Below, in pieces: positions 7,539 to 10,026 of a stretch of 22,945 nucleotides of DNA. Numbering within the stretch: the stretch's first letter is position 1; every line of letters starts with the position of its first letter. This DNA is from a virus, in IMG/VR virus record IMGVR_UViG_3300031578_000354, one strand, 5' to 3'. The notes below the pieces were generated by a model. The model was not told where the DNA came from, made no database searches, and worked only from the letters and a program-made list of their open reading frames with translations. The position numbers and the translations under genes are program-made.

Positions 7539-8899
7539 TAGGATTCGTCCTCCTCATCAAAATCGTTGGTTGAAGAAATCTCACGCATGTTTTTAATGTG
7601 TGCCTCAATGTCATCCATTCCAAGTACGGAAACCCAAAGAATGACTTCTCTTAAATAGGCACCAGTCATACCGTCTGCTAATTTAGATAATTTAATGAAA
7701 TCTTCCTCAGATAATATAAGACCCATCTGTTCAGCGTGAGCCTTAAGTATGCGACCACACATATCTTTTCCAGCGTGAGCCTTAAATTCTATAGCGTGGT
7801 CAAATCTTCCTGGCCTTCTAAGGGGCCTTGGCACCTTAGATATGTCATTAACTGTAGCAATAAAAAGTCTTTTTCTTGTTGAAGATTCTCTATTTAAACG
7901 CTCTAAGTCACTTAATAGAGTTTCCATATCATGAATACGATCAAGATCGTCAAACAAGATAATGGAAGGATCTACAACACTTATGGTATTAAAAATAGAT
8001 CCGGTAGATTTATTTGCTAATGCCCAGCCATTTAAAATTAAGATCTTGCCACCAAGAGATTCGGTTAATCGTAGGGCTAATGTTGTTTTCCCGGATCCCG
8101 GATCTCCATAGAATAAAAGAGATCTGTTGTGGCCCTTTTCAAAAAATTTGTTAATACTTTCAACAAGTTTCTCTTCATCAAATGGGCTTACATAGGCGTC
8201 TGCGTGTGGAGTGATAGAGTCTAAACATAGATTTCTACCCCACCCACCATCATCTCTATTACTATCAAGCAGTATATATCTACCAAACTTCTTTTCAATA
8301 GCAGCTGAAGTAGAATCAAAGAACTCTTCTTTGGTTTTAGAATATGGGCCATCAATATACTCTTGTGATATATGATCTATAAAATATATTTTTATTCCTT
8401 CTATTTGATATTCTTCTATATTTGTAGAATCTTCACCTTCTCCTTGCCAATATATTTCCATAGGAATATTCATGTATTTATACGTGTCTCGCACAAATTG
8501 TCCTATGTTATTACATACTAAACTACATCCCATGTCTCTAAGGATATTAGAAGCCTCAATCTTCGCACCACCAACGATATTATCAGATATAACACCATAG
8601 GCCGATAACAATCCAAGTCCAATAGATATTGGATTCTTTTCTCGCATCTGATAGTATATGCCAAGACCTTCCTTAGCAACCTTAGTTACCTTCTTAATCC
8701 CATCGTTTAACTTTTGTTTTCTCACCCTTCTTCTTCTGGCCAATTCCTCTTCTGTTTCAAACTCAGAAGAGATAGGGCCGTCTAACAACCTATCGAACCA
8801 ACTTACCTTTTCCTTTTTTGGTTCAGATGACTCTGGTATATAACCCGTATTAAATTTCCATCTTCCGTGGGGCTTGGGTTTGTTTGCTTTATCATTCAT
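7538..8899 (-). CDS. classic-clade AAA ATPase with an uncharacterised ~230-aa N-terminal domain
   Basis: 453 aa. Walker A is GDPGSGKTT and Walker B is IILFDDLDR. The second region of homology is RPGRFDHAIEF. A GAGG RBS precedes the start. The gene sits between the RNA ligase and Lon. Confidence 0.85.
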   Translation of the reverse strand: MNDKANKPKPHGRWKFNTGYIPESSEPKKEKVSWFDRLLDGPISSEFETEEELARRRRVRKQKLNDGIKKVTKVAKEGLGIYYQMREKNPISIGLGLLSAYGVISDNIVGGAKIEASNILRDMGCSLVCNNIGQFVRDTYKYMNIPMEIYWQGEGEDSTNIEEYQIEGIKIYFIDHISQEYIDGPYSKTKEEFFDSTSAAIEKKFGRYILLDSNRDDGGWGRNLCLDSITPHADAYVSPFDEEKLVESINKFFEKGHNRSLLFYGDPGSGKTTLALRLTESLGGKILILNGWALANKSTGSIFNTISVVDPSIILFDDLDRIHDMETLLSDLERLNRESSTRKRLFIATVNDISKVPRPLRRPGRFDHAIEFKAHAGKDMCGRILKAHAEQMGLILSEEDFIKLSKLADGMTGAYLREVILWVSVLGMDDIEAHIKNMREISSTNDFDEEDES

Positions 8900-10026
8900 C
8901 TTTTACCCTCGGTTAGAATTGTTTTTCGTCTAAGAGCGTCCACTCTGCTCATCTTCTTATCATAAAGAGCAAACACAAATGGCTTGATATGTCCATGTAG
9001 TTTGCTTATCAACATAGCAAGTTCTTTTCTCCTTCCAACCTCATCGGTTTTATCAGACGAAAAGTTATTGATTACCTCATGAGCTTCATGTATCGTATTA
9101 TCAACAGAAACAGACGCTCTTTTGTATCTATGATAAAACGGAAGGGTAGTTTCTATAATCTCATAATCATAATCACAAGCCTGTAGTTCTTTTATTAAGT
9201 CTGCTTCACTATTAATACCAGATAGTTCCGCAAACTCTACCATAAATCTATAATTTATGGAGAACTTCATCCTGTGTTGGGCCAGGTAATGGGCGCTTTT
9301 TACTTTGACCATTACCTGATCTTGATCACATCTGGCAACCACACCTTCATCTTTCCAAGTCTTTATAATTTCCAAGAGTTCCAACGGATCTCGTGGCAGA
9401 TCGTGCAGACGTACAAGATTTAACTGGCCCTCTTTCGCCACAGCTTCCACCTCAGACCAGTGCCCGATATGTAAAGAATGATCTACATACCCAAGGAACA
9501 CCAAGTCTTCTTCCTTGTATCGTATTACAACTAAATTGCCTGGTGCTACATACTCGAATAAAAGAGATCGGTCTGTCATCCAGTTAGAATCTAATATTTT
9601 CGGATACTTCTGGGCAGTTCGAAAAAATCTTTCCTTATAAGATTCCATTCCATCTTCTCCACGCTCGCCACCATATAAGGTTCCACGAGTACGAAGAATT
9701 ACCTGGCCATTTATAACTGATCGAATACACAGAGATCCGTCTTCTTTGTGGCTAAATCTTACAGGCGCACCATCTTCAAGATCTTTTTTAAGCGTTTCAG
9801 TATCATCCAAAAATTCGCCATAGTTTCCAAACTTTGGCCAACCTGATGATACTACATAGCCATCCTGATCAACGATAATTGAACGCAGGAATCTCTCTTC
9901 GAAACTCCAATCCCACATATTTTTTCTGGGACATATAAAAGTTAATCCGCTATCCGAAACCTGCCGGAAATCAGATCGCACTTTGGACAGATCTAATCTC
10001 GCCCCAAAACCAGTAAAAGACCACAT
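8896..10026 (-). CDS. rnlA: ATP-dependent RNA ligase, T4 Rnl1 (RnlA) family
   Basis: 376 aa (T4 Rnl1 is 374 aa). The motif I lysine context KEDGSL is identical to T4 (xKEDGSLV). EYVAP is homologous to T4 EFVAP. EGVVARCDQDQVMVKVKSAHY is homologous to T4 [20 protein letters not shown]. Confidence 0.85.
   Translation of the reverse strand: MWSFTGFGARLDLSKVRSDFRQVSDSGLTFICPRKNMWDWSFEERFLRSIIVDQDGYVVSSGWPKFGNYGEFLDDTETLKKDLEDGAPVRFSHKEDGSLCIRSVINGQVILRTRGTLYGGERGEDGMESYKERFFRTAQKYPKILDSNWMTDRSLLFEYVAPGNLVVIRYKEEDLVFLGYVDHSLHIGHWSEVEAVAKEGQLNLVRLHDLPRDPLELLEIIKTWKDEGVVARCDQDQVMVKVKSAHYLAQHRMKFSINYRFMVEFAELSGINSEADLIKELQACDYDYEIIETTLPFYHRYKRASVSVDNTIHEAHEVINNFSSDKTDEVGRRKELAMLISKLHGHIKPFVFALYDKKMSRVDALRRKTILTEGKR

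Follow-up and report, generated by a model that had tools for sequence, protein, structure and literature searches.

Repair of cleaved RNA by Rnl1, Pnkp and RlaP is a known means by which phages survive host anticodon nucleases. In bacteriophage T4, RNA ligase 1 (Rnl1, gp63, the product of rnlA; 374 amino acids, aa) acts with Pnkp in a tRNA repair pathway that counters the anticodon nuclease PrrC. RNA-repair systems associated with RlaP were reportedly described by Burroughs and Aravind in 2016. Across jumbo phages, RlaP and RNA ligases have closely matching distributions (Iyer et al. 2021, PMC7824862). The same survey of 224 jumbo phages lists ClpP, ClpS, ClpA/X and BCS1-like proteins, and the words Lon, MVP and vault are absent from it; protease and chaperone genes of this kind are presumed to target host proteins or to help in assembly (PMC7824862). 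No account of a LonA encoded by a phage came up in phrase searches of the open-access literature. Here we describe a stretch of viral DNA of 22,945 nucleotides (IMG/VR record IMGVR_UViG_3300031578_000354, hereafter the window), in which the gene of an Rnl1-family RNA ligase is followed by genes for a AAA ATPase and a complete LonA protease. These are known enzymes in a conserved arrangement for which no description was found, together with a new AAA family: a huge-phage lineage keeps its own clade of LonA beside an RNA ligase, usually with a private AAA protein between the two.

The three genes are, in order of transcription:

8896-10026, minus strand: Rnl1-family ATP-dependent RNA ligase, 376 aa, with PF09511, phrog_562 and motifs I, III, IV and V
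7538-8899, minus strand: lineage-specific AAA ATPase of the classical clade, 453 aa, with PF00004 at residues 261-373
5184-7538, minus strand: complete LonA protease, 784 aa, with N-terminal substrate-binding domain, AAA+ module, lid and S16 protease

The window is part of a genome from an uncultivated huge (jumbo) phage lineage, as judged from relatives on large viral contigs, tight packing of genes on one strand and several PHROG matches among its genes. All credible genes lie closely packed on the minus strand. Relatives of ligase, AAA and Lon occur on contigs of 91-461 kb. Four of these are viral genomes in IMG/VR (244-442 kb); a JGI metagenome contig of 461 kb and an NCBI assembly of 306 kb also belong to the set. 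An identical ligase is encoded, amid the same neighbours, by an ENA metagenome contig of 55.6 kb and by several shorter ones. A nucleotide search with the 12-kb core gave no match among 50,697 phage records.

Gene order was compared in every retrievable context of ligases at least 45% identical to that of the window, a set of 12 contigs. The ligase gene lies just upstream of LonA in 11 of them, with the AAA gene between in eight and absent in three. The order ligase-AAA-Lon is found in the window and in contigs L007, L009, L010, L011, L115, L116 and L119, some of which have one or two small open reading frames (ORFs) between ligase and AAA; in L033, L034 and L035 the ligase gene is followed directly by Lon, with gaps of 9-40 bp. 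Unrelated genes have been gained or lost around the cluster, including SLT, M10 peptidase, Metallophos, pyruvate kinase and adenylosuccinate synthase genes and others. Despite these changes, and with phage Lons only 41-70% identical to one another, the order of ligase, AAA where present, and LonA has held; in this phage lineage the cluster is old and conserved.

The membership of the ligase in the Rnl1 family, proposed in an earlier reading of the letters of the window (the sequence-only reading), is upheld by family profiles, by structural databases and by intact motifs. The match to Pfam PF09511 (RNA_lig_T4_1; E 3e-11, 44 bits against a curated cut-off of 28.3) covers profile positions 3-227 of 227, phrog_562 (RNA ligase and tail fiber attachment catalyst) matches with E 6e-31, and the only PDB sequence matches are structures of T4 Rnl1 (2c5u, 9do4, 5tt6; E about 1e-5). 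The ORF contains KEDGSL (K94), LFEYVAP (E158), EGVVAR (E227 G228) and VKVKS (K241, K243), and motif I is assigned to K94, motif III to E158, motif IV to E227-G228 and motif V to K241/K243; K94-E-D-G, E158, E227-G228 and K241/K243 align with KEDGSL, FEFVAP, EGYVA and KIKS of T4. The DNA-ligase and capping-enzyme families, which the sequence-only reading had named as the assignments that would speak against Rnl1, gave no match in family profile searches. The same reading had also matched the motifs to T4 RnlA, and here it went too far: the ligase scores 50.3 bits against the T4 RnlA equivalog model (NCBIfam TIGR02308), far below the cut-off of 242.25, and its identity to the ligases of the 50,697 phage records nowhere exceeds 28%. 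A large protein search returned 138 relatives, all unnamed metagenomic proteins of 360-410 aa, and R48, K65, F66, K94, D96, G97, E158, E227, G228, K241 and K243 are invariant across a 25-member alignment. Given the low similarity to T4, the exclusively metagenomic relatives and the invariant catalytic residues, sequence comparison places the ligase in a distinct, phage-restricted subfamily of the known Rnl1 family, distant from T4 gp63, and the protein is probably active as an RNA ligase.

The earlier view that the window encodes a complete LonA, and that such a protein is unusual in phages, proved correct on both counts. Lon scores 777.6 bits against the endopeptidase La equivalog model of NCBIfam (TIGR00763, cut-off 608), and the Pfam domains LON_substr_bdg, AAA, Lon_lid and Lon_C all match. 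The protein aligns with 7p6u over residues 9-772, and end to end also with 6u5z; in the 7p6u alignment it has Walker A (GPPGVGKTS), Walker B (MLDEVD), the pore loop YVG and the Ser-Lys dyad, formed by the serine of GPSAG and the lysine of GGLKEK. Only 14 of the 50,697 phage records match it, and two of these cover at least 80% of the query. Its matches among unnamed metagenomic proteins range from 100% to about 54% identity, and several of them come from contigs equal in length to those of AAA or ligase relatives; the remaining ones are 44-48% identical, and those with names are bacterial endopeptidase La proteins of several phyla. Neighbour-joining trees separate the huge-phage Lons, as a single clade, from the bacterial Lons sampled (100/100 bootstraps); they are 37-47% identical to these and 41-70% identical to one another. 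As the bacterial sample consisted of the sequences most similar to the query and the method was a simple one, the deep placement of the clade is provisional. Between the host-like and the divergent phylogeny that the sequence-only reading had set out as alternatives, the outcome is a divergent one, and a sequence identical to that of a host is refuted.

The phage clade is divided into two well-supported subclades, each with AAA-bearing loci, and the three AAA-lacking loci do not group in the Lon tree (3/100 bootstraps). From this distribution the AAA gene was probably ancestral to the cluster and was lost more than once. Several Lon relatives (P0240, P0242, P0244, P0246, P0247, P0263 and that of L033, 10241-13651) reach about 1,130-1,140 aa, an excess of about 350 aa over the Lon of the window, and a LAGLIDADG match in P0244 and in the L033 protein indicates an intein. 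One AAA relative (P0361, 817 aa) also has a LAGLIDADG match. Inteins in Lon, and once in AAA, fit genes that are important to the phage. In the 306-kb NCBI assembly (L009, 9374-11721) Lon is called as a 734-aa product and a 48-aa Lon_C fragment, a split that points to a frameshift or sequencing error close to the C terminus.

The AAA protein has the motifs Walker A (GDPGSGKTT), Walker B (LFDDLD), sensor-1 (N351) and RRPGRFD with the arginine fingers; together, the PF00004 profile and this second region of homology place it in the classical AAA clade. Its N-terminal region of about 240 aa has no family match in profile searches, in agreement with the uncharacterised N-domain noted from the sequence, and for the orphan domain proper (about residues 50-240) no Pfam or PDB sequence match and no significant structural match among viral models was found. 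The family is small, with 52 clusters in 1.84 billion representatives; a search of the protein against the 50,697 phage records gave no match, and the nearest named relatives are proteasome-activating nucleotidases and Cdc48. Divergent homologues at L013 and L117 have no adjacent Lon.

The gene overlaps reported in the sequence-only reading are present. At the first junction ATGA contains both the stop of the ligase gene and the start of AAA, and GAGGG lies upstream of it; at the second, TAATG contains the end of AAA and the beginning of Lon and is preceded by GAGGAGGA. A Shine-Dalgarno-like GAGG thus precedes both start codons. The strongest terminator-like structure of the scanned region lies further upstream:

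12412-12437, minus strand: terminator-like hairpin of 11 pairs, 9 of them G-C, with a T-rich tail

This hairpin (GGGGGCGGGGA-GAAA-TCCCCGCCCCT, then the T-rich tail) occupies a 47-bp gap after the gene of a vault protein, and on the coding strand from there to the Lon stop only four weaker matches to the terminator consensus occur. The transcription unit with ligase, AAA and Lon probably has its upstream boundary here, and the three genes are for this reason probably carried on one transcript.

Further upstream on the same strand, or between the hairpin and the ligase, are candidate partners in RNA repair or counter-defence:

15428-16630, minus strand: RlaP (RNA-ligase-associated Pol-beta) nucleotidyltransferase, 400 aa, PF10127
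18127-18708, minus strand: second Pol-beta-type nucleotidyltransferase, 193 aa, NTP_transf_2, matching the N-terminal part of phrog_388
10654-11295, minus strand: Gad2-like nucleotidyltransferase, 213 aa, precomputed Pfam Gad2 domain PF26128
12445-15000, minus strand: full-length Major Vault Protein (MVP) homologue, 851 aa, vault repeat and shoulder domain

The Gad2 family is named after a phage anti-Gabija protein, and a Gad2-like homologue lies upstream of the ligase in L007, L033 and L034 as well. RlaP is encoded 5.4 kb upstream of the ligase (PF10127, 63.4 bits against a cut-off of 23; phrog_388, E 1e-62), and is found in or near the cluster in the window, L007, L008, L034, L035, L037, L115 and L116. 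Members of the RlaP family add nucleotides to the 3' ends of damaged RNA (PMC12776372). The MVP homologue is collinear with rat MVP (PDB 4hl8, E 1.5e-11), and its C-terminal region aligns with the helical tail of the rat protein. Phage vault proteins have already been reported in a 2023 preprint (10.1101/2023.11.10.566534). Homologues are encoded in the phage genomes LR756500, LR756501 and LR756503 (462-735 kb), where no ligase or Lon lies within about 17-20 kb on either side, and MVP was accordingly rejected as a member of the conserved cluster. RlaP, the two other nucleotidyltransferases and the vault-protein homologue fit an RNA-repair or counter-defence set. Assignment to a known defence system was rejected, the PADLOC library giving generic P-loop or Lon-domain matches only (BrxL C-terminal domain, IetA). 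No tRNA, tRNA-like gene or credible Rfam family was found in the window, and the locus therefore shows no associated non-coding RNA such as has been proposed for some repair systems. Metallophos genes occur near the cluster in relatives.

A separate association was observed on smaller phage contigs. L042, L048 (8152-10978), L053 and L109 carry Metallophos, a 335-aa classical AAA and Rnl1 in that order, the stop of the AAA gene abutting the start of the ligase gene (content verified with Pfam for L048 only). These loci are an independent pairing of a classical AAA protein with an Rnl1 ligase: the same AAA family was considered and rejected, as their AAA is nearer to VAT, Cdc48 and YjoB (about 90 bits) than to the AAA of the window (59 bits).

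The remaining neighbours are small or of uncertain function:

11623-11952, minus strand: conserved protein of unknown function, 109 aa (orf109)
11308-11622, minus strand: DUF5658 small membrane protein with three hydrophobic segments
10029-10643, minus strand: tandem-repeat protein, 204 aa, phrog_3532 (E 1e-60)
4810-5091, minus strand: small basic zinc-ribbon protein, 93 aa, CxxC ... CxxxxC
3607-4350, minus strand: DUF7227 protein (E 3e-70), conserved downstream of Lon

By tblastn, the 109-aa protein is present in the cluster in 9/9 distinct related contigs, and so is a homologue of the zinc-ribbon protein, which may bind nucleic acid, downstream of Lon. DUF5658 is encoded upstream of the ligase (in L008, of AAA) in 8/9 related contigs with gene calls, and DUF7227 is split into two ORFs in two relatives (L007 12773-13478, L033 14539-15236). 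In the 204-aa protein a unit of roughly 23 aa, in which the motif LSEDFI recurs, is repeated about eight times in tandem. The search of related contigs returned no homologue, so the gene was probably inserted next to the upstream end of the ligase gene and probably lies outside the conserved cluster.

The reading that we favour, to which we give about an even chance, is that an RNA-repair ligase is co-expressed with AAA and a phage LonA as a damage-control or counter-defence operon. The ligase, together with RlaP and the two other nucleotidyltransferases, would most likely reseal tRNA or other RNA cut by host nucleases during infection, a role suggested by its family and by its RlaP partner. 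Apparently co-transcribed with it, the lineage-specific AAA would be an optional accessory or adaptor rather than an obligatory unfoldase, and the phage-clade LonA would degrade proteins; RNA-targeting effectors of the host, regulators or damaged translation factors are the most plausible candidates. That Lon might act in the same process, for instance by removing an RNA-cleaving effector, is suggested by the conserved adjacency of the genes, and its use for quality control of repair proteins, or against host defence, is conjecture. The analysis establishes the gene identities, the intact active sites, the phage origin, the conserved gene order, the separate clade of phage Lons and the rarity of the AAA family, whereas we infer which RNAs the ligase seals, what Lon degrades and whether the three products are coupled physically or functionally; the coupling of ligase and protease is plausible but unproven, since overlapping genes and long-range synteny are general in these genomes. 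A more elaborate form of the proposal, in which Rnl1, AAA where present and LonA make up a counter-defence machine (ligase and RlaP repairing cleaved tRNA or other RNA, LonA destroying the RNA-cleaving host effector or other immune proteins, and AAA or a ubiquitin-like cassette steering it), we regard as unlikely.

Several observations weigh against the favoured reading. The AAA protein lacks two features that processive unfolding needs: the Walker-B Glu is replaced by Asp in 25/25 aligned members of its family, with D317 and D318 invariant, and the same 25 sequences have no conserved aromatic-hydrophobic-Gly pore loop between Walker A and Walker B. With the orphan N-domain, these features make the label of unfoldase given in the sequence-only reading doubtful, and the protein is better termed an optional accessory with slow or regulatory ATPase features. 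As it is moreover absent from three lineages, AAA is dispensable and not a required connection of ligase and Lon. The overlaps, which had been taken as a sign of coupled translation, are unspecific, for 15/36 junctions of consecutive ORFs in the window overlap and this is a general style of the genome. No Pnkp-type enzyme, kinase, phosphatase or phosphoesterase for end healing was recognised among the 36 ORFs of the 23-kb window, so that a complete T4-style pathway is not established. One contig of the twelve, a 316-kb phage (L006/L008), splits the order, its ligase lying about 19 kb upstream of AAA-Lon. Outside the set, neither a 38%-identical ligase locus (L118) nor 76 more distant IMG/VR Rnl1 loci have Lon nearby; taken with the 11 of 12 contigs, this indicates a ligase-Lon link that is lineage-specific and strongly kept within the lineage. 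Finally, a longer block of about 15 kb is collinear (orf109, DUF5658, ligase, Lon, zinc-ribbon ORF, DUF7227, ubiquitin-like gene, E2), and adjacency may for this reason reflect shared descent and shared timing of expression without joint function.

The last point is the basis of the main alternative, namely that the genes are neighbours by descent only, independent members of a co-expressed non-structural block in which Lon serves general proteostasis or host takeover for a phage with hundreds of protein products. We consider it possible, although it falls short of an even chance. Collinearity extends over a long range and includes genes with no link to RNA or proteases, the overlapping junctions and the distant ligase of the 316-kb phage suit it, and jumbo phages carry ClpP, ClpS, ClpA/X and BCS1-like AAA+ genes in a patchy manner (PMC7824862). 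It accounts less readily for the fact that, despite many insertions and deletions elsewhere, nothing other than AAA and at most two small ORFs has come to lie between ligase and Lon in 11 of the 12 contigs.

It is improbable, in our judgement, that AAA is mainly an accessory of RNA repair, remodelling RNA-protein complexes or the ligase, with Lon merely the next gene. The Lon-free Metallophos-AAA-Rnl1 order would fit such a role, as would the 316-kb phage, where AAA and Lon stand together two small genes downstream of RlaP. Against this, the AAA of the Metallophos loci belongs to a different family, as the bit scores given above indicate, and the AAA family of the window lies directly upstream of Lon in 9/11 contigs, even where the ligase is elsewhere.

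AAA and LonA could also be read together with genes found further downstream:

718-2888, minus strand, and past the edge of the window at low coordinates (L001 17196-21131): ubiquitin-like (Ubl) cassette with Ubl, a 300-aa gene, Prok-E2_D, JAB and ThiF-type E1

The small Ubl gene is at 2649-2888, and its L033 homologue matches Prok_Ub at 2.7e-7; Prok-E2_D is at 718-1413, an unknown 300-aa gene stands between the two, and JAB and the ThiF-type E1 lie just outside the window. In this alternative, which seems to us distinctly improbable, AAA, LonA and the cassette constitute a phage tag-and-degrade system to which the ligase is unrelated. The cassette lies about 2-5 kb downstream of Lon in the source contig of the window, E2_D with JAB and/or ThiF is found downstream of Lon in L007, L008, L033, L034 and L035 (L011 has an E2_D homologue), and proteasome-activating nucleotidases and Cdc48 are the closest AAA proteins with names. 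Yet about ten unrelated small genes separate Lon from the Ubl genes, no cassette was seen downstream of Lon in L115 or L116, and a Ubl-binding domain is not recognisable in the N-domain of AAA.

That Lon was recently captured from a host, or that the contig is bacterial DNA, is extremely improbable: Lon does pass the bacterial endopeptidase La model and the G+C content of its region (0.41-0.45) lies slightly above that of the neighbouring regions (0.36-0.39), but its best cellular matches are only 44-47% identical and come from several phyla, the phage Lons group together in all bootstraps, the surrounding gene order is common to phage-sized viral contigs, and the other long conserved gene, that of the vault-protein homologue, is likewise richer in G+C, so that, judged by its sequence, this Lon is not a recent host capture.

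If the link between ligase and protease is functional, the phage would pair the repair of damage with removal of its cause, and LonA would have a natural, genetically linked candidate partner, an aid to the study of substrate selection by Lon. Should the counter-defence machine outlined above be real, no virus-encoded LonA system with a specificity partner of its own would have been described before it. Even if the link is positional only, the LonA clade, the AAA family of 52 clusters and the Rnl1 subfamily are testable additions to the gene list of huge phages.

Set beside T4 Rnl1 and Pnkp, the ligase of the window is likewise phage-encoded, is similar in length and shares PF09511 and the residues of motifs I, III, IV and V. 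Its partners differ: they are RlaP and other nucleotidyltransferases, with no Pnkp in the window, and the conserved downstream AAA and LonA are absent from all 76 other IMG/VR Rnl1 loci. With RlaP-associated repair systems the locus shares the presence of an RNA ligase and RlaP in one phage neighbourhood, here with a homologue of the RNA-binding vault family nearby; a conserved LonA and AAA family beside the ligase is not described in the jumbo-phage survey (PMC7824862). Among AAA proteins of the classical clade, such as Cdc48/VAT, FtsH/i-AAA, Bcs1 and B. subtilis YjoB, that of the window stands apart in having DD in place of DE in Walker B, no conserved pore loop, an orphan N-domain and so few clusters. 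The LonA proteins of E. coli, T. thermophilus and B. subtilis have the full architecture, Ser-Lys dyad, Walker motifs and YVG in common with the phage Lon, which differs in the conserved AAA or ligase gene upstream and in the LAGLIDADG intein of several relatives. Cultured jumbo phages with ClpP, ClpS, ClpA/X, BCS1-like or MoxR-vWA proteins also possess ATP-dependent proteolysis or remodelling genes of their own (PMC7824862); in the present lineage the protease is LonA and not ClpP, it is fixed beside RNA-repair genes, and its occurrence is lineage-wide rather than patchy.

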